DNA of 64,000 nt from Escherichia coli (lineage in GTDB: Bacteria > Pseudomonadota > Gammaproteobacteria > Enterobacterales > Enterobacteriaceae): the NCBI RefSeq assembly GCF_030384885.1, contig NZ_CP128613.1; one strand, written 5' to 3'. A program made the position numbers and the translations under genes. Positions 2,764-61,320 of the stretch are shown piece after piece (position 1 is the first letter of the stretch; every line of letters begins with the position of its first letter). The notes beneath the pieces were generated by a model that did no database searches, had not been told where the DNA came from, and saw only the letters and a list, made by a program, of their open reading frames with translations.

Positions 2764-4797
2764 TTATTTCACCTGATGGCCCGGTTTAGCACCGGCATCC
2801 GGGCTTAGCAGGAAAATATCTTTCCCGCCAGGACCAGCAGCCATCACCATGCCTTCAGAGATACCGAAGCGCATTTTACGTGGTGCCAGGTTAGCCACCA
2901 TAATGGTGTGACGACCAATCAGTGCCTGCGGATCCGGGTAGGCAGAACGAATGCCGGAGAAGACATTGCGTTTTTCACCGCCGAGATCCAGCGTCAGGCG
3001 CAGCAGTTTGTCAGAACCTTCAACAAACTCTGCGTTTTCAATCAGCGCCACGCGCAGGTCAACTTTAGCGAAGTCGTCAAAGGTGATGGTTTCCTGAATC
3101 GGATCATCTGCCAGCGGGCCAGTCACGGGGGCGGCAGTGGCTTTCACTTCTTCTTTAGACGCTTCCACCAGTGCTTCAACCTGCTTCATGTCAATACGGT
3201 TATACAGCGCCTTGAACGGATTCACTTTGTGGCCCAGCAGCGGTTGCTGGATACCATGCCAGGTCAGTTCCGTATTGAGGAATGCTTCTGCACGCTCGGT
3301 CAGTTTCGGCAGTACCGGCTTCAGGTAAGTCATCAGCACGCGGAACAGGTTTATGCCCATCGAGCAAATTGCCTGCAGGTCGGCATCGCGGCCTTCCTGT
3401 TTCGCCACCACCCACGGAGCCTGTTCATCGACATAGCGGTTAGCCAGATCAGCCAGCGCCATAATTTCGCGCACTGCTTTACCAAATTCGCGGCTTTCCC
3501 ATGCTTCACCAATCACTTCAGCGGCATCCGTGAAGGTTTTGTACAACTGCGGGTCAGCCAGTTCGCTTGCCAACACGCCGTCAAAACGCTTGTTGATAAA
3601 GCCCGCGTTACGGGATGCCAGGTTTACAACCTTATTAACGATATCGGCATTCACGCGCTGGACGAAATCCTCGAGGTTGAGATCGATATCATCAATGCGC
3701 GAAGAGAGTTTCGCAGTGTAGTAGTAACGCAGGCTGTCAGCGTCAAAATGATTCAGCCAGGTGCTGGCTTTAATAAAGGTGCCGCGAGACTTGGACATCT
3801 TCGCGCCGTTCACCGTTACATAGCCGTGAACAAACAGGTTGGTCGGCTTGCGGAAGTTGCTACCTTCCAACATGGCAGGCCAGAACAGGCTGTGGAAGTA
3901 AACGATATCTTTACCGATGAAGTGGTACAGTTCGGCGGTGGAGTCTTTCTTCCAGTATTCATCGAAGCTTACGCTGTCGCCGCGCTTGTCGCACAGATTC
4001 TTGAAGGAACCCATGTAGCCAATCGGCGCGTCCAGCCAGACGTAGAAATATTTGCCCGGCGCGTTCGGAATTTCAAAACCGAAGTACGGTGCATCGCGGG
4101 AGATATCCCACTGTTGCAGACCGGACTCAAACCACTCCTGCATTTTGTTTGCCACCTGCTCCTGCAACGCGCCGCTGCGGGTCCATGCCTGCAACATTTC
4201 GCTGAAAGAAGGCAGATCAAAGAAGAAGTGTTCAGAATCACGCATTACCGGGGTAGCGCCAGAAACCACCGATTTCGGCTCGATCAGTTCAGTCGGGCTG
4301 TAGGTCGCGCCGCAGACTTCGCAGTTATCGCCGTATTGATCCGGGGATTTACATTTCGGGCAGGTGCCTTTTACAAAACGGTCCGGCAGGAACATGCCTT
4401 TTTCCGGATCGTACAGCTGAGAGATGGTGCGGTTTTTAATAAAACCGTTTTCTTTCAGGCGAGAATAGATAAGTTCTGACAACTGGCGGTTCTCTTCGCT
4501 GTGCGTCGAGTGATAGTTGTCATAGCTGATGTTAAAGCCTGCAAAATCAGTCTGATGTTCCTGACTCATTTCGCCAATCATCTGCTCCGGAGTGATACCA
4601 AGCTGCTGAGCTTTCAGCATGATCGGTGTACCGTGGGCATCGTCGGCGCAGATGAAGTTGACCTCGTGGCCGCGCATTCGCTGGTAACGGACCCAGACAT
4701 CAGCCTGGATGTGCTCCAGCATATGGCCGAGGTGGATTGAGCCGTTAGCGTACGGCAGTGCGCACGTCACCAGAATTTTCTTCGCGACTTGAGTCAT
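2764..4797 (-). CDS. metG: methionyl-tRNA synthetase
   Basis: Track ORF 2764..4806; HIGH-type motif (HLGHMLEH) and KMSKS motif present. Start moved to internal Met ([19 protein letters not shown]) to give the 677-aa length I recall. Confidence 0.93.
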
Positions 4798-4928
4798 AGT
4801 AGGCATTACTTCTTAATAGTGAAAAGGGGTTAGATAGTACCAAATGGGAAAATGTTAAGTAAGTACTTCTCTATATTCTTCAGGTAAACTATCAGCTGAT
4901 GGTTTATCTATACAAAAAAGGAGTCGGG

Positions 4929-6038
4929 ATGAACGAACAATCCCAGGCCAAATCACCAGAAGCCTTGCGCGCAATGGTCGCCGGGACACTGGCCAATTTT
5001 CAGCACCCAACCCTGAAGCATAACCTCACCACGCTGAAAGCGTTGCACCATGTCGCCTGGATGGACGACACGTTGCATGTGGAACTGGTTATGCCATTCG
5101 TCTGGCATAGCGCGTTCGAAGAGTTAAAAGAGCAATGTAGCGCTGAACTGCTGCGCATCACCGGGGCGAAAGCTATCGACTGGAAACTGTCGCACAATAT
5201 CGCCACCTTAAAACGCGTGAAGAATCAGCCGGGAATTAACGGCGTGAAGAACATCATTGCGGTCAGCTCCGGTAAAGGCGGCGTGGGTAAATCCTCCACG
5301 GCGGTAAATCTGGCGCTGGCACTGGCGGCGGAAGGGGCGAAAGTCGGCATTCTGGACGCCGATATCTACGGCCCATCAATACCCACCATGCTGGGCGCAG
5401 AAAATCAGCGTCCAACTTCGCCGGACGGTACCCATATGGCACCGATTATGTCTCATGGACTGGCAACCAATTCAATTGGTTATCTGGTCACTGACGACAA
5501 TGCGATGGTGTGGCGTGGTCCGATGGCGAGCAAGGCGTTAATGCAGATGTTGCAGGAAACCTTGTGGCCGGATCTCGACTATCTGGTGCTTGATATGCCG
5601 CCAGGCACCGGTGACATTCAATTGACACTGGCACAAAACATTCCAGTAACTGGCGCGGTAGTGGTCACCACCCCGCAGGACATTGCGTTGATCGATGCGA
5701 AAAAAGGCATTGTGATGTTCGAGAAAGTCGAGGTTCCGGTGCTCGGTATTGTCGAGAACATGAGTGTGCATATTTGCAGTAACTGTGGTCACCATGAACC
5801 GATTTTCGGTACCGGTGGTGCAGAGAAACTGGCCGAGAAATACCACACGCAGTTGCTGGGGCAGATGCCGTTACACATTTCCTTACGTGAAGATCTCGAT
5901 AAAGGCACGCCAACAGTTATCAGCCGTCCGGAGAGCGAATTTACCGCTATCTACCGCCAGCTGGCTGACCGCGTTGCAGCCCAGCTTTATTGGCAGGGAG
6001 AAGTCATTCCTGGCGAGATTTCCTTCCGCGCGGTCTGA
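4929..6038 (+). CDS. apbC: Fe-S cluster carrier ATPase Mrp/ApbC
   Basis: Track ORF 4899..6038; P-loop GKGGVGKSS and CSNCG motif; start moved to MNEQSQAKSPEALRA. Divergent from metG as in K-12. Confidence 0.9.
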   Translation: MNEQSQAKSPEALRAMVAGTLANFQHPTLKHNLTTLKALHHVAWMDDTLHVELVMPFVWHSAFEELKEQCSAELLRITGAKAIDWKLSHNIATLKRVKNQPGINGVKNIIAVSSGKGGVGKSSTAVNLALALAAEGAKVGILDADIYGPSIPTMLGAENQRPTSPDGTHMAPIMSHGLATNSIGYLVTDDNAMVWRGPMASKALMQMLQETLWPDLDYLVLDMPPGTGDIQLTLAQNIPVTGAVVVTTPQDIALIDAKKGIVMFEKVEVPVLGIVENMSVHICSNCGHHEPIFGTGGAEKLAEKYHTQLLGQMPLHISLREDLDKGTPTVISRPESEFTAIYRQLADRVAAQLYWQGEVIPGEISFRAV

Positions 6039-52353: not shown

Positions 52354-52437
52354 GCCGGATGTGGTGCGAGCGCCTTATCCGGCCTGGGGAATGAGCGATT
52401 TGTAGGCATGATAAGACGCGTTAGCGTCGCATCAGGC
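52354..52437. repeat. BIME-like pair of REP elements between alkA and dgcE
   Basis: gccggatgtggtgcgagcgccttatccggcc and gtaggcatgataagacgcgttagcgtcgcatcaggc. Confidence 0.7.
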
Positions 52438-52454
52438 AATGGGCAAACGCTCCC

Positions 52455-57424: not shown

Positions 57425-59278
57425 ATGAGACGATTTCTGACGACGCTGATGATACTCCTGGTCGTGCTGGTGGCCGGGTTATCTGCGTTAGTGTTGCTGG
57501 TGAATCCGAATGATTTCCGCGACTATATGGTCAAGCAAGTTGCTGCACGTAGCGGTTATCAATTGCAGCTCGACGGGCCACTGCGTTGGCACGTCTGGCC
57601 GCAACTTAGTATCCTCTCCGGGCGAATGTCTCTCACTGCCCAGGGCGCGAGCCAGCCACTGGTTCGCGCAGACAACATGCGTCTGGACGTGGCGCTTTTA
57701 CCACTGCTGAGTCATCAACTGAGCGTTAAGCAGGTGATGCTAAAAGGGGCAGTGATCCAACTGACGCCGCAGACGGAAGCGGTACGCAGCGAAGATGCCC
57801 CGGTTGCACCGCGCGACAATACCTTGCCGGATCTGTCAGACGATCGCGGATGGTCGTTTGATATATCCAGTCTTAAGGTGGCGGACAGCGTGCTGGTGTT
57901 CCAGCATGAAGATGACGAGCAGGTGACAATCCGTAATATCCGCCTGCAAATGGAACAAGATCCCCAACATCGTGGTTCATTTGAGTTCTCCGGGCGGGTT
58001 AATCGCGATCAGCGCGATCTCACGATATCCCTTAACGGTACGGTAGATGCTTCTGATTATCCGCATGATTTAACGGCGGCTATTGAACAAATTAACTGGC
58101 AGTTGCAGGGTGCCGATTTACCAAAACAAGGTATTCAGGGGCAGGGGAGTTTCCAGGCCCAGTGGCAGGAGTCACATAAACGCCTTTCATTTAACCAAAT
58201 TAGTTTGACCGCCAATGACAGTACGCTGAGCGGGCAAGCACAGGTCACGCTGACAGAGAAACCGGAATGGCAGCTGAGACTGCAATTCCCGCAACTGAAT
58301 CTTGACAACCTCATCCCGCTTAAAGAAACAGCGAACGGTGAAAACGGTGCCGCGCAGCAGGGGCAGAGCCAATCAACATTGCCGCGCCCGGTCATTTCTT
58401 CGCGTATTGATGAACCCGCGTATCAGGGGCTGAAAGGCTTTGCGGCAGATATTTTGTTGCAGGCCAGTAACGTGCGCTGGCGCGGAATGAATTTTACAGA
58501 TGTTGCCACGCAAATGACCAACAAGTCGGGTTTGCTGGAAATTACTCAACTGCAGGGCAAGCTTAACGGTGGACAGGTTTCGCTGCCGGGCACGCTGGAC
58601 GCGACATCAATAAATCCGCGGATAATCTTCCAGCCACGGTTGGAAAACGTTGAGATTGGCACCATTCTGAAGGCGTTTAACTATCCGATTTCGTTGACCG
58701 GAAAGATGTCACTTGCGGGTGATTTCTCCGGTGCTGACATAGATGCCGACGCATTCCGCCACAACTGGCAAGGACAGGCGCATGTCGAAATGACGGACAC
58801 ACGTATGGAAGGGATGAACTTCCAGCAGATGATTCAGCAAGCGGTAGAGCGTAATGGTGGTGATGTGAAGGCCGCTGAAAACTTCGATAACGTGACGCGT
58901 CTTGACCGCTTTACCACCGATTTGACGTTGAAGGATGGCGTCGTGACGTTAAACGATATGCAAGGTCAATCGCCTGTGCTGGCGCTGACAGGGGAAGGCA
59001 TGTTGAATTTGGCAGATCAAACCTGCGACACCCAGTTTGATATTCGGGTCGTGGGTGGCTGGAACGGGGAAAGCAAACTGATTGATTTCCTCAAAGAAAC
59101 GCCAGTACCGCTGCGGGTTTATGGCAACTGGCAGCAACTTAATTACAGCCTGCAAGTGGACCAGCTGCTACGCAAACATCTCCAGGACGAAGCGAAACGT
59201 CGCCTGAATGACTGGGCAGAGCGGAATAAAGATTCCCGCAATGGCAAAGATGTGAAGAAGTTGCTGGAGAAGATGTAA
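57425..59278 (+). CDS. asmA: outer-membrane assembly protein AsmA
   Basis: 617 aa with N-terminal TM anchor. Confidence 0.9.
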   Translation: MRRFLTTLMILLVVLVAGLSALVLLVNPNDFRDYMVKQVAARSGYQLQLDGPLRWHVWPQLSILSGRMSLTAQGASQPLVRADNMRLDVALLPLLSHQLSVKQVMLKGAVIQLTPQTEAVRSEDAPVAPRDNTLPDLSDDRGWSFDISSLKVADSVLVFQHEDDEQVTIRNIRLQMEQDPQHRGSFEFSGRVNRDQRDLTISLNGTVDASDYPHDLTAAIEQINWQLQGADLPKQGIQGQGSFQAQWQESHKRLSFNQISLTANDSTLSGQAQVTLTEKPEWQLRLQFPQLNLDNLIPLKETANGENGAAQQGQSQSTLPRPVISSRIDEPAYQGLKGFAADILLQASNVRWRGMNFTDVATQMTNKSGLLEITQLQGKLNGGQVSLPGTLDATSINPRIIFQPRLENVEIGTILKAFNYPISLTGKMSLAGDFSGADIDADAFRHNWQGQAHVEMTDTRMEGMNFQQMIQQAVERNGGDVKAAENFDNVTRLDRFTTDLTLKDGVVTLNDMQGQSPVLALTGEGMLNLADQTCDTQFDIRVVGGWNGESKLIDFLKETPVPLRVYGNWQQLNYSLQVDQLLRKHLQDEAKRRLNDWAERNKDSRNGKDVKKLLEKM

Positions 59279-59296
59279 GTCATCCAGATGACATAT

Positions 59297-59336
59297 GCTG
59301 TAGGCCTGATAAGACGCGTAAGCGTCGCATCAGGCA
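59297..59336. repeat. REP element
   Basis: gctgtaggcctgataagacgcgtaagcgtcgcatcaggca. Confidence 0.75.
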
Positions 59337-59694
59337 ATCACGTAGATTACTTTCAGCAAATATGAATCATCTGTATAAGTAAGATACTTCAGCGAGGGTG
59401 TTGGTCCGGCTGTAAATCGCCGAATCGTTTCCTGTAGGCCGGGGCAGCCCACATGGATGTGGGCTGAGGGCGCGTTTTACAGGGATGTTACCTCGCGCCC
59501 GTACCCGATAGCCGAAAGGAATAAGATGAGGGGACCGCGCTAGCGGCGATTTACCGCCGGGAGCCCGGGTTGCCAGGGTGGTGGCGATTGAGCCACCCTG
59601 GCACGTTCACCGGCTTGAGCGTTCCAAAGTAGCGAGGAACATAAAGTGAACGGAACAGCCTCTAATGTCACATACTCTCCCGGTTGAATGAAAC

Positions 59695-59733
59695 GCCTGA
59701 TGCGACGCTTACGCGTCTTATCAGGCCTACATG
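59695..59733. repeat. REP element, inverted relative to the copy at 59297
   Basis: gcctgatgcgacgcttacgcgtcttatcaggcctacatg is the reverse complement of the 59297 copy. Confidence 0.75.
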
Positions 59734-59736
59734 CCA

Positions 59737-61320
59737 TCACACCTCGTACTCCATCTCGCCATCCTTACGCAGCGGAATAATCTGCACCTTCTGCACGCGA
59801 TGGCTTTCCACCTGCAACGTTTTAAGCAAATAATCCCCCACCTGAACTTCTTCGCCAGGTTTTGGAATACGCTGCAAATATTCCATCAACAGCCCGGCAA
59901 TGGTGTGATATTCACGTTTTTCATCCAGCGGCAGCGGCACATATTGCACCAGATCTTCCAGCGGCATATGACCATTCGCTGTCCATGAACCGTCGGCATT
60001 TTTCTGAATATCATGACGGGCATCGATCTCTTCCACTTCGTTTGGCAAGTTACCTGCAATGGTTTCAGTGACGTCACTTAATGTCACAATCCCTTCCACC
60101 GAGCCAAACTCATCCACCACAAAAGCAAAGTGTGTGCGGGCATTACGGAACTGCTCCAGGGCAGGTAACAACGGTAAAGTTTCCGGGAACACCAGCGGCT
60201 GGCGAATCAACACCCGCAGGTTGAGCGGTTCGCCGCGCAGTGACTGTTGTAACAGGTCGATAACGTGAACAACACCGAGCAAATCTTCTGCATCATCGCC
60301 GTCGGTAACGACCAGACGCGTGTGCTGATTTCGCTCCAGCAGCTGGCGGATCTCCTCTTCCGGCGCGTTGAGATCGATATGCTCAATATCGTGGCGCGAC
60401 GTCATAATGCTGCTGACAGTACGCTGGTTAAGATTAAGTACCCGCTCAATCATCCGCCGTTCCTGCGGATTAAAGATCTGCTGGTTACCATGATCCACCA
60501 GCATGGACGCGGTTTCGGCATCCAGTTCCGCATCTTCTTTTTGCCCGCTTAACAAGCGCATTACCGCTTCGGTAGTCCGCTGGCGCAGCGTCTGGTTAGC
60601 GGAAAGAAAACGTCGCCGGTTAAAGATAGCCAGTTGATTGAGCGCCTCGATCATCACCGAGAAACCAATGGCAGCGTACAGGTAGCCTTTCGGAATGACG
60701 AAGCCGAAACCTTCCGCCACCAGGCTAAAGCCAATCATCAACAGGAAGCTTAGGCAGAGAATAACGATGGTCGGGTGGCTATTAACGAACTGGGTTAACG
60801 GCTTGCTTGCCATCAGCATCAGGCTGATCGCGATAACCACGGCGGCCATCATGACCAGTAAATGGTCGACCATCCCGACGGCGGTAATCACCGAGTCAAG
60901 TGAGAAGATGGCGTCCAGCACCACAATTTGCGTCACCACGCCCCAGAACTTCGCACCTTTGCGTTGTGTGGGGTTATTGCTGTCTTTCCCCTCCAGCCGT
61001 TCGTTCAACTCCATCGTGGCTTTGAACAGCAGGAAGAAACCACCAAACAGCATGATTAAGTCGCGGGCACTAAAGGTAAACGAGCGGAAGCTGAACAGCG
61101 GTTGAGTCAGGGTGACCAGCCAGGAGATTGACGCCAGCAGTAACAGGCGCATTAACATCGCCAGCAGCAGCCCGGTAACCCGTGCGCGGTCGCGCTGCTT
61201 CGGCGGTAGTTTTTCGGCGAGGATGGCAATAAAGACCAGGTTATCAATGCCGAGGACCAGTTCGATCACAATCAGCGTGATTAACCCGGCCCAGATAGAC
61301 GGATCGGCAATCCATTCCAT
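59737..61320 (-). CDS. yegH: TerC-family membrane protein with CBS and CorC/HlyC domains
   Basis: Track ORF 59737..61386; start moved to [20 protein letters not shown] (527 aa). Confidence 0.88.

Follow-up and report, generated by a model that had tools for sequence, protein, structure and literature searches.

A divergent member of the TRIP1/RRS repeat family between inverted REP palindromes at the asmA-yegH locus of Escherichia coli

INTRODUCTION

What is the GC-rich segment that lies between two inverted repetitive extragenic palindromic (REP) sequences where the convergent genes asmA and yegH meet, and what might it do? The question arises from a 64,000-nt stretch of Escherichia coli DNA (assembly GCF_030384885.1, contig NZ_CP128613.1; the whole stretch is called the window, and its positions are used throughout), in which 458 nt separate the asmA stop codon (59276-59278) from that of yegH (59737-59739, minus strand), the two genes being named after the RefSeq annotation of an identical locus. 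An initial annotation had suggested a MITE-like (miniature inverted-repeat transposable element) mobile unit or an undescribed structured RNA. Our comparisons indicate that the segment is almost certainly a divergent, full-length copy of the TRIP1/RRS repeat; the locus, the allele and the divergent subtype are new, while the family itself is already known. Taken as a whole, the segment is best explained as a DNA element, a copy of a divergent subtype that resides at asmA-yegH, a reading to which we assign a probability of about 0.6.

TRIP1 repeats go back to Rudd (1999), and the same elements were later described as RRS, for "replication risk sequence" (PMC10287960, PMC11194060, PMC10888264), in work by Pham, Wood, Cox and Goodman (Pham et al., 2023, 2024) and by Kusi-Appauh et al. 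(2026). In K-12, TRIP1a lies at 915016-915281 (lysO-aqpZ) and TRIP1c at 2229122-2229394 (yohP-dusC/yohI), while TRIP1b, the putP copy, is internally deleted (PMC10888264); TRIP1a is RRS-lysO and TRIP1c is RRS-dusC, described as two 222-bp RRS (PMC10287960, PMC11194060). A study of 6725 E. coli genomes recognized five TRIP1 types at five loci (aqpZ-ybjE, putP-ycdN, yohG-yohI, alx-sstT and copA-ybaP), with 0 to 5 copies per genome (Li et al., 2024; PMC10888264).

RRS-lysO and RRS-dusC flank the Ter macrodomain on its two sides, each ~650 kb from dif, with their sense strand on the lagging-strand template; SSB and RecA accumulate there on single-stranded DNA (ssDNA), the cloned sense strand stops Pol I, II and IV, the elements act both where they naturally lie and at ectopic sites, and K-12 conditionally depends on at least one of them for viability (PMC10287960, PMC11194060). 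Deletion or inversion of an RRS alters genome-wide supercoiling (Pham, Wood, Cox, Goodman). The authors ascribe the effect to a G-quadruplex (G4), GGGGGTGCAGGGGGCGGCGG (PMC10287960, PMC11194060); gaps were also reproduced in vitro with purified replisomes, and the complementary strand, which lacks the G4, gave them as well, at lower frequency.

RESULTS

The inter-REP segment aligns with TRIP1/RRS along its whole core

A profile search with nhmmer matched positions 59391-59656 of the window (E = 4.6e-75, profile positions 2-265), and BLAST aligned the segment to K-12 TRIP1a, at lysO-aqpZ, with 85.7% identity over 189 nt. We take the profile match and the family alignment to exclude a likeness to TRIP1a and TRIP1c that is limited to generic GC-rich hairpins. 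Over the full core (~59390-59660, + strand, which is also the folding or sense strand), identity to K-12 TRIP1a and TRIP1c is 70-71%. GC content is 54% for the inter-REP segment and 60.5% for the core, slightly under the 62-65% published for TRIP1, and the minimum free energy (MFE) of the core as RNA, -132.1 kcal/mol, is comparable to what has been published for TRIP1a, c, d and e at full length, from -131 to -150 (PMC10888264). The notion that the segment was undescribed can accordingly be dropped. The asmA-yegH copy and a further E. coli copy at proX-ygaY nevertheless fall outside the five published TRIP1 loci; in the literature we found no published repeat at asmA-yegH, and a literal sequence search of papers came back empty too.

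The conserved unit extends beyond the core on either side. The 5' leader (59350-59389, + strand) consists of a CTTTCAGCAA box followed by an A/T-rich TATAAGTAAGAT stretch; by eye, a cAGC(a/g)At box recurs ~40 nt ahead of the core start, cAGCGA, in copies from several genera. The 3' tail (59653-59694, + strand) holds CACATACTC, a conserved CACATgTTC-type box that is found ~25 nt past hairpin 4 in copies of many genera. Because both the cAGCaAt box of the leader and the CACATgTTC box of the tail belong to the conserved unit, the inter-REP segment is essentially the whole of it.

Several other identities were considered and rejected. The segment lacks convincing coding capacity, as the initial annotation had judged: its only two open reading frames (ORFs), of 40 and 66 aa, are both on the minus strand, the start of the 66-aa ORF falls on the junction of the yegH stop and the REP, which is missing in the common allele, and neither ORF is conserved in a family alignment with single-base indels throughout. 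The RSA repeat of K-12 comprises six uniform copies of 150/151 bp (PMC5172473), as against two ~264-nt and two truncated copies of the present family in K-12. ERIC, BoxC and PU-BIME do not account for the core, there being no such E. coli family in Cozzuto et al. (2008) and no other Rfam match. A phage or plasmid origin was likewise set aside: no phage match was found, and the "plasmid" matches were chromosomal segments or mislabelled chromosomes.

Relatives are numerous, and the core is at least as constrained as its neighbours

With 59337-59694 as query, megablast found matches in 5418 of 5426 complete E. coli genomes, at a median of three places and up to seven; at least 80% of the query was covered in just 53 of them. 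The other E. coli sites are the spacers lysO-aqpZ, yohP-dusC, efeU-putP and proX-ygaY. More distant BLAST matches came from Klebsiella (12 places on one chromosome) and Citrobacter, none from phage. A degenerate pattern scan of one genome per species yielded at least 120 loci, across which nhmmer located at least 172 copies; the genera among the matches listed were Escherichia, Citrobacter, Enterobacter, Klebsiella, Raoultella, Kluyvera, Kosakonia, Leclercia, Silvania, Phytobacter, Atlantibacter and Pseudescherichia. Far from being a single-copy sequence, the element sits at some 80 loci in enterobacterial genera, as the initial annotation had thought a BLASTN search might reveal. What did not hold was the idea that the same REP borders would recur: the other E. 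coli copies inspected are free of them, and the two-REP allele is found in ~41 genomes.

The window core is 79% identical to the E. coli proX-ygaY copy and ~80% identical to Silvania and Enterobacter copies, while identity rises to 95.8-98.5% with the asmA-yegH copies of E. albertii, Escherichia sp. E1V33, Escherichia sp. MOD1-EC7003, SCPM-O-B-8794 and OV24. In these last comparisons the 3' end of asmA is 85-96% identical and that of yegH 92-98%, so the core is constrained at least as strongly as the flanking coding sequence. Silvania confinis carries a copy 65 nt downstream of its yegH; the locus is either old or a hot spot.

Hairpin 4 divides the family in two. Subfamily A (GTTCAC/GTGAAC) holds the window copy, the proX copy and the Citrobacter, Enterobacter and Silvania copies inspected, and subfamily B (GCTCC/GGAGC) holds TRIP1a, TRIP1c, the efeU-putP copies and those of Klebsiella.

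Compensatory changes maintain a strand-specific fold

Full-length copies, 127 distinct ones drawn from roughly a dozen genera of enterobacteria, were aligned with MAFFT and analyzed with RNAalifold and pair counting. RNAalifold predicted 50 pairs, 36 of which show compensatory double changes. In a 55-pair, 11-helix structure, 95.6% of cells are paired; column shuffles give 80.2%, none of the 500 attaining the observed figure, and sliding the partners by 1-3 columns drops pairing to ~40%. Changes on both sides occur in 41 of the 55 pairs, with a covariation score of 0.426 against 0.159 after shuffling. The window copy itself is very stable relative to dinucleotide shuffles: its 281-nt core has z = -5.7 as + strand RNA (z = -5.45 for the minus strand) and, as ssDNA, folds at -75.6 kcal/mol on the + strand (z = -7.8) and -68.2 kcal/mol on the minus strand (z = -7.05). 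The description of the segment as GC-rich and structured was therefore sound.

The two strands are not equivalent across the family. Over the 50 RNAalifold pairs, G-U combinations outnumber A-C by 84 to 16 (~5 to 1), which identifies the + strand, the published "sense" strand, as the one that folds. This asymmetry fits RNA and, equally well, ssDNA with G-T wobble.

The fold begins with a TwoAYGGAY-like 5' domain (59406-59560, + strand) made of a closing stem, inner stems and two hairpins. The closing stem P1 pairs 59406-59422 with 59544-59560 (17-nt arms, 94% complementary), and covariation supports both it and the inner stems. Hairpin 1 (59445-59466, + strand; arms 59445-59454 and 59457-59466, 10 nt, 100% complementary) carries the hexaloop AUGGAU closed by a C-G pair, and 7 of its 8 pairs changed on both sides. 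Hairpin 2 (59468-59500, + strand; helices 6 and 7) has the form GGGCGCG...CGCGCCC with the apical loop AGGGAU and both-side changes in 7 of 9 pairs. On the 3' side follow hairpin 3 (59571-59603, + strand; arms 59571-59581 and 59593-59603, 11 nt, 100% complementary; helices 9 and 10), which covaries at 8 of 10 pairs, and hairpin 4 (59604-59652, + strand; CGTTCAC ... GTGAACG; helix 11), where GTTCAC/GTGAAC changes to GCTCC/GGAGC between subfamilies. Hairpins 1 and 3 are the two strong local hairpins that had been quoted in the initial annotation.

Among unpaired positions, the GGA of both hexaloops (nearly invariant), an AUAAG box and the GGCG of the hairpin-3 loop are conserved. The G-rich 5' arm of hairpin 3 is the counterpart of the published RRS G4, GGGGGTGCAGGGGGCGGCGG aligning with GGGTTGCCAGGGTGGTGGCG in the window. 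At its central pairs this arm never swaps sides (GC in 125 and 126 of the 127 copies), pointing to an extra constraint on those G's. The feature common to the family is the hairpin architecture.

The core resembles the TwoAYGGAY motif

Only one RNA family in Rfam, RF01731 (TwoAYGGAY), matches the core, always on the sense strand and always under its gathering cut-off of 43 bits (26-42.7 bits). The window match, at 59439-59507 (+ strand, 29.1 bits), is partial and covers model positions 43-114; scores are 31.5 bits for OV24, 30.6 for K-12 TRIP1a, 38.2 for Silvania and 42.7 for Citrobacter youngae, and most sister-copy alignments span the full model (1-168). Loop 1, AUGGAU, fits AYGGAY, loop 2, AGGGAU, has G in place of Y, and these loops' hairpins covary together with the 17-bp P1, a stem that is often very long in TwoAYGGAY (Weinberg et al., 2010). 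The search for covariance and RNA families that the initial annotation had proposed thus gave compensatory pairs and one sub-threshold family.

Possibly, though we think it doubtful, TRIP1/RRS is the enterobacterial branch of TwoAYGGAY, with the covarying multi-hairpin fold and its GGA hexaloops, not the G4, as the selected feature. If so, either the TwoAYGGAY "RNAs" of gut Firmicutes and Psychromonas would be strand-specific DNA replication-gap elements spread as mobile repeats, or RRS would have a further mode of action, by way of a transcript or of a protein that binds the GGA loops. In either case the asmA-yegH subtype, G4-poor and more conserved than its flanks, would be a natural test separating the fold from the G4.

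Could the + strand simply be an RNA of this class, made by read-through from asmA or from a weak promoter of its own and bound by a dimeric protein such as CsrA? TwoAYGGAY has been proposed as a CsrA-binding small RNA (sRNA) (Gardner and Eldai; PMC4333381). The RF01731 match would support such an RNA, being the sole RNA family match, confined to one strand and close to the cut-off in Citrobacter youngae, and so would the near-invariance of GGA in both loops, the excess of G-U over A-C and the sense orientation of the element relative to asmA in the window allele. The CsrA/RsmE consensus is CAnGGAnG, which the loops of the element fit. We nevertheless regard this explanation as quite unlikely. 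No RF01731 score reaches 43 bits, and ssDNA G-T wobble accounts for the strand asymmetry just as well. Neither a sigma-70-like promoter nor an intrinsic terminator appears at the borders of three loci, and solo copies between tandem genes are antisense at 12 loci versus sense at 4. The effects of RRS depend on fork orientation and were reproduced in vitro with purified replisomes. In the CsrA crosslinking immunoprecipitation (CLIP) tables of Potts (2017), ybjE, dusC and asmA are given as not bound, and aqpZ, yohP and yegH are absent from the part of the supplementary text that was searched; the tables lend no support to a CsrA target, but for an intergenic RNA they are not decisive.

An autonomous sRNA gene was rejected as a candidate: no sigma-70-type promoter or terminator was seen in the window, K-12 TRIP1a or a Citrobacter pair of copies, the -35/-10 candidates picked out by eye were inconsistent, and the window leader has no sigma-70 consensus promoter. 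The proposal of a structured RNA accordingly finds little footing here: the best-studied members act in ssDNA during replication, and no promoter or terminator marks a transcription unit.

The element occurs in both orientations at asmA-yegH

The REP arms, 59299-59335 and 59695-59731, form a 37-nt, 100% complementary inverted repeat with 359 nt in between; inverted REP copies do flank the segment, as first reported, with coordinates that need shifting by 1-2 nt at each end. We identify the arms as REP palindromes since both match the REP-derived Rfam family naRNA4, below threshold. The left REP, on the asmA side (59299-59335, + strand), is presumably Z2-like, and a REP at this position is also present in K-12, OV24, E. 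albertii and other Escherichia. The right REP, on the yegH side (59695-59731, minus strand), is an exact inverted copy of the left one and belongs to the window-type allele only, being found also in Escherichia sp. E1V33 and E. coli SCPM-O-B-8794 and not intact in K-12, OV24 or E. albertii. A further REP copy, 95% identical to the left REP, lies 7 kb upstream at 52401-52440.

Two allele types can be distinguished. The unit of leader, core and tail stands in opposite orientations, because the element aligns plus/plus to K-12 and OV24 while asmA and yegH are reversed. In the window type, with its two inverted REPs, the element is sense to asmA and lies 110 nt past the asmA stop; this type occurs in ~41 of 5426 complete E. 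coli genomes, those of strains 2013C-4282 and UMNF18 among them, as two sub-variants (99.4-100% and ~95%) in diverse hosts, as well as in Escherichia sp. E1V33 and E. coli SCPM-O-B-8794. In the opposite type there is one intact REP and the element is sense to yegH; about a quarter of E. coli genomes hold a full copy of it, and it is also found in K-12 (in truncated form), E. albertii, Escherichia sp. MOD1-EC7003 and Silvania. Two intact REPs are seen only with the window orientation, and both orientations occur across Escherichia species. Relative to OV24 (1420-1870 of its locus sequence), the K-12 copy (5487-5759 of its own) has lost its 5' half, and the ends of the deletion share GGGTA microhomology (…CTATCGGGTACGGG… and …GCATTGGGTAAAAT…).

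The flipped block is homologous to within ~13 nt of both REPs: the window leader is, by eye, ~60% similar to that of the opposite-orientation allele, and the window tail is homologous to its core-REP stretch. This extent suggests a REP-associated inversion, and the flip may have come about through a rearrangement involving the two inverted REPs. A simple REP-REP inversion was tried and set aside, as no clean path could be reconstructed and the possible yegH-side REP remnant of the common allele appears directly oriented.

A comparable switch is seen at yohP-dusC, where, between one and the same pair of genes, TRIP1c stands in opposite orientations in K-12 (L014, 2123-2385, minus) and in other E. 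coli strains (L007 and L009, 1995-2259, plus), the rest of the spacer being unrelated. Li et al. (PMC10888264) describe TRIP1c copies in either direction, as well as inversions on the Mb scale that have TRIP1a and TRIP1c as their ends, and the switch at yohP-dusC may be connected with these.

The prominence of the REPs raises another explanation, namely that the pair itself is the functional unit, either a BIME-like site binding gyrase or HU or a stabilizer of asmA and yegH mRNA 3' ends, with the inner segment as a mere spacer. Each REP does adjoin the 3' end of one of the two convergent genes, where REPs are usually found, and the two are identical over 37 nt; BIME-2 sites, moreover, have been discussed in the literature as topological barriers. 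It is the enclosed segment, though, and not the REP pair, that is conserved across species and genera, and most genomes keep the element with a single REP. We also know of no BIME architecture with a 359-nt spacer, and overall we hold this explanation to be highly improbable.

The window copy has the strand geometry of RRS but little G-quadruplex potential

GC skew along the + strand of the window is +0.025, with positive values in 7 of 8 bins, and the gene order udk-dcd-asmA-yegH-wza is that of the K-12 left replichore in the direction of the fork. Skew and gene order together make the + strand the lagging-strand template, with origin and terminus placed by K-12 gene order and not located in the source genome. 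K-12 and OV24 show the opposite strand geometry at asmA-yegH. The K-12 spacer lies at 2,139.5-2,139.8 kb, 90 kb from RRS-dusC.

A mechanism can be proposed by analogy with RRS-lysO and RRS-dusC, where a gap of as much as 2 kb stays behind the passing replisome and SSB and RecA are loaded onto it. Once single-stranded, the + strand of the window folds into the long closing stem, the two GGA-loop hairpins, a small hairpin and the two 3' hairpins, and on the lagging-strand template this fold would block polymerases. The window allele holds its copy in the "active" geometry, and the common alleles carry a flipped (OV24) or a flipped and 5'-truncated (K-12) one. At somewhat less than even odds, any action of the window copy would be that of a G4-poor element which triggers gaps on the lagging strand more weakly than RRS-lysO and RRS-dusC do.

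Several observations weigh against this view. Using a simple implementation of G4Hunter of our own, we scored the RRS G4 20-mer GGGGGTGCAGGGGGCGGCGG at 2.3 and the aligned window sequence GGGTTGCCAGGGTGGTGGCG at 1.15; the maximum over 25 nt is 1.04 in the window copy and 1.84 in TRIP1a and TRIP1c, and the exact RRS G4 sequence does not occur in the window copy. A score of at least 1.5 is attained by all 33 subfamily-B copies (100%) but by 21% of the 94 subfamily-A copies, which makes the G4 a feature of the branch of RRS proper. Taking dif to lie at ~1,589 kb in K-12, the copy is ~550 kb away in K-12 coordinates, not 650 kb; no symmetric partner was identified, and nhmmer found no partner copy within the 64-kb window. 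As a rare allele (~41/5426) without such a partner, the copy is not generally required. Nor is there a family-wide bias in replication orientation, a candidate feature that we could rule out: relative to local GC skew, 29 of 60 copies are positive, and most copies are therefore not selected for lagging-template geometry. As for the inversion, the possible yegH-side REP remnant in the common allele looks, by eye, direct and not inverted.

The family looks like a dispersed, once-mobile repeat

Flanking proteins group ~152 copies into ~81 loci in ~35 genomes. Where both neighbours of a solo copy could be called, the genes are convergent at 19 loci, in tandem with the element antisense at 12, in tandem with it sense at 4 and divergent at 3, and the 3' end of the element faces a gene 3' end in ~77% of copies.

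The copies come in different packages. In Silvania and Kosakonia they lie inside terminal inverted repeats (TIRs) of 27-32 nt, CCCTCTCCCTGAGGGCTGAGGAATCCCCA ... TGGGGATTCCTCAGCCCTCAGGGAGAGGG; the Phytobacter copy and one from an Enterobacter metagenome-assembled genome (MAG) have matching 12-nt end motifs, a Leclercia copy has a 16-nt pair, and Klebsiella copies have REPs nearby. The TIRs lie at 543-574 and 973-1004 of locus L071 and 5350-5376 and 5777-5803 of L110, and the Leclercia pair at 4307-4322 and 4713-4728 of L128. The Silvania and Kosakonia TIRs hold CCCTCTCCC…GAATCCCCA, and close to the 3' end there is one more hairpin, CCCTCTCCC/GGGAGAGGG; the Leclercia pair is without GAATCCCCA. 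The repeats probably resemble BoxC and ERIC ends, those of Silvania and Phytobacter having a GAATCCCCAG core in common with ERIC ends and CCCTCTCCC/GGGAGAGGG in common with BoxC.

We also counted 40 head-to-head inverted pairs with facing 5' ends, mostly in Citrobacter, and no tail-to-tail pairs among the copies located. One such pair occupies 4657-4919 (minus) and 4993-5252 (plus) of L011, and others include those in L106, L066, L023 and L089; the gaps are mostly 51-87 nt, with a few of 130-155 nt and four of 264-977 nt. The spacer of the Citrobacter pairs (…TTTTGCTGTTCAGATATATTCAAATAAAAA…) is conserved between loci and the two arms are of different subtypes, so that the ~600-bp palindromic unit is itself a repeat.

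In K-12 the family has decayed: the asmA-yegH copy has its 5' half deleted, the putP-efeU copy has an internal deletion, and a BIME takes the place of the proX-ygaY copy. Decay at these three loci, together with the varied packaging, is the signature of a once-mobile repeat, and this is what the family looks like; some copies may have been co-opted after it spread. The suggestion of a MITE-like mobile unit is in this respect partly vindicated, the segment belonging to a dispersed multicopy family with features of mobile elements. The REP-bracketed unit itself has the REPs as 37-nt inverted termini, but no target-site duplication (TSD) was found, with only a 3-nt TGC repeated at its outer edges; in every allele compared the left REP is at one and the same site, and no clean empty site was found in the related genomes compared.

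It follows that the segment might be nothing more than a selfish or relic MITE-like repeat, cargo between inverted REPs in the manner of a long-spacer REPIN, with no host function at this locus. The ~152 copies at ~81 loci, the decayed or deleted K-12 copies, the several inverted-repeat "vehicles" and a copy number of 0 to 5 among E. coli genomes all suit such a relic, as do the avoidance of divergent promoter regions, the 77% of copies that face a gene 3' end and the unbiased replication orientation. A relic would not, however, be expected to have a core more conserved than neighbouring coding sequence across Escherichia species or compensatory evolution kept across genera; no transposase or RAYT partner was identified, no TSD was found and the left REP is fixed in all alleles, and a host-level effect has been demonstrated for two family members. 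We consider a functionless relic unlikely. It can be compatible with the DNA-element reading that we prefer, through mobile spread followed by exaptation of some copies.

Other features of the surveyed loci

At proX-ygaY, K-12 has a two-REP BIME (5126-5316 of L016) and EC556 a full subfamily-A copy (2969-3420 of L003), and the two spacers have only the last ~100 nt before ygaY in common. Near-identical copies of E. coli or Klebsiella type on a Bacillus sp. contig (L116; 583 bp, coverage 0.7) and a Sporobacter MAG contig (L094) most likely reflect contamination or mis-binning. A 2.8-kb "Proteobacteria" MAG contig (L034; matches at 1-139, minus, 225-323 and 424-686, plus) fuses a copy of the asmA-yegH type to the final 33 codons of yegH and to a copy of the TRIP1c type that has the yohP-side flank of K-12; the junction is due either to recombination between copies 90 kb apart or to mis-assembly at the repeat.

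Known RNAs lie beside some copies. In Phytobacter ursingii (L135) the RyhB sRNA gene (1356-1423; RF00057, 69 bits, above cut-off) is ~200 nt from a copy. C4 antisense RNAs (RF01695, 68-78 bits, above cut-off) adjoin copies or lie between them in Silvania confinis and two Citrobacter species (L053, 5754-5940; L099, 1189-1373; L107, 577-765), with c4-a1b1 and isrK-like matches, and may be recurrent remnants of phage immunity beside the repeat.

DISCUSSION

RRS is one of only two kinds of bacterial sequence reported to programme single-strand gaps in replication, and it has been portrayed as two G4-containing, position-conserved repeats. The asmA-yegH copy and its relatives qualify that picture. 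Further divergent E. coli members, at asmA-yegH and proX-ygaY, have escaped BLAST-based surveys; the trait kept across genera is the hairpin architecture, strand-specific and supported by compensatory changes, the G4 being confined to one branch; and the family spans dozens of loci in transposon-like packages, with an orientation that varies between strains at a single locus. The window allele, in which a relative poor in G4 lies 90 kb from RRS-dusC and is oriented in the "active" way, offers a natural variant for asking whether the fold alone makes gaps, and the near-threshold TwoAYGGAY match ties an orphan motif of 2010 to an element with an assayable phenotype.

Among known systems, the closest is TRIP1/RRS itself. 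The window copy shares with it homology along the whole core, the same helices, the same sense folding strand, high GC content and an intergenic position beside gene 3' ends, and in the window allele the lagging-strand template carries that sense strand, just as it does with RRS-lysO and with RRS-dusC. It differs in its 70-71% identity, new locus, weak G4, inverted-REP bracket and polymorphic orientation. TwoAYGGAY likewise has two hairpins, with A-Y/G-GGA-Y loops, enclosed by a long closing stem, and its matches all fall on one strand, but the enterobacterial element adds a conserved ~100-nt 3' extension (hairpins 3 and 4), scores below the cut-off and, as RRS, acts as DNA, whereas TwoAYGGAY is presumed to be an RNA.

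Like REP/BIME elements and REPINs, the latter being inverted REP doublets that RAYT transposases mobilize, the locus has two identical inverted REPs at the 3' ends of convergent genes; REPIN spacers are short, however, while here 359 nt of independently conserved sequence is unrelated to the REPs, nothing points to movement by a RAYT, and all alleles have the left REP in common. The family is small, non-coding, intergenic and multicopy, with decayed copies and, in some genera, inverted-repeat ends, in which it recalls MITEs and the intergenic repeats ERIC/IRU and BoxC of enterobacteria, but its internal fold is far more elaborate and covaries, and no transposase partner or TSD was identified. 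Finally, the pilE G4 of Neisseria gonorrhoeae, the only other bacterial sequence reported to programme replication gaps, is also gap-forming and serves antigenic variation; it is a short G4 motif with a dedicated sRNA promoter and, unlike TRIP1/RRS, has neither a multi-hairpin fold nor a repeat family.

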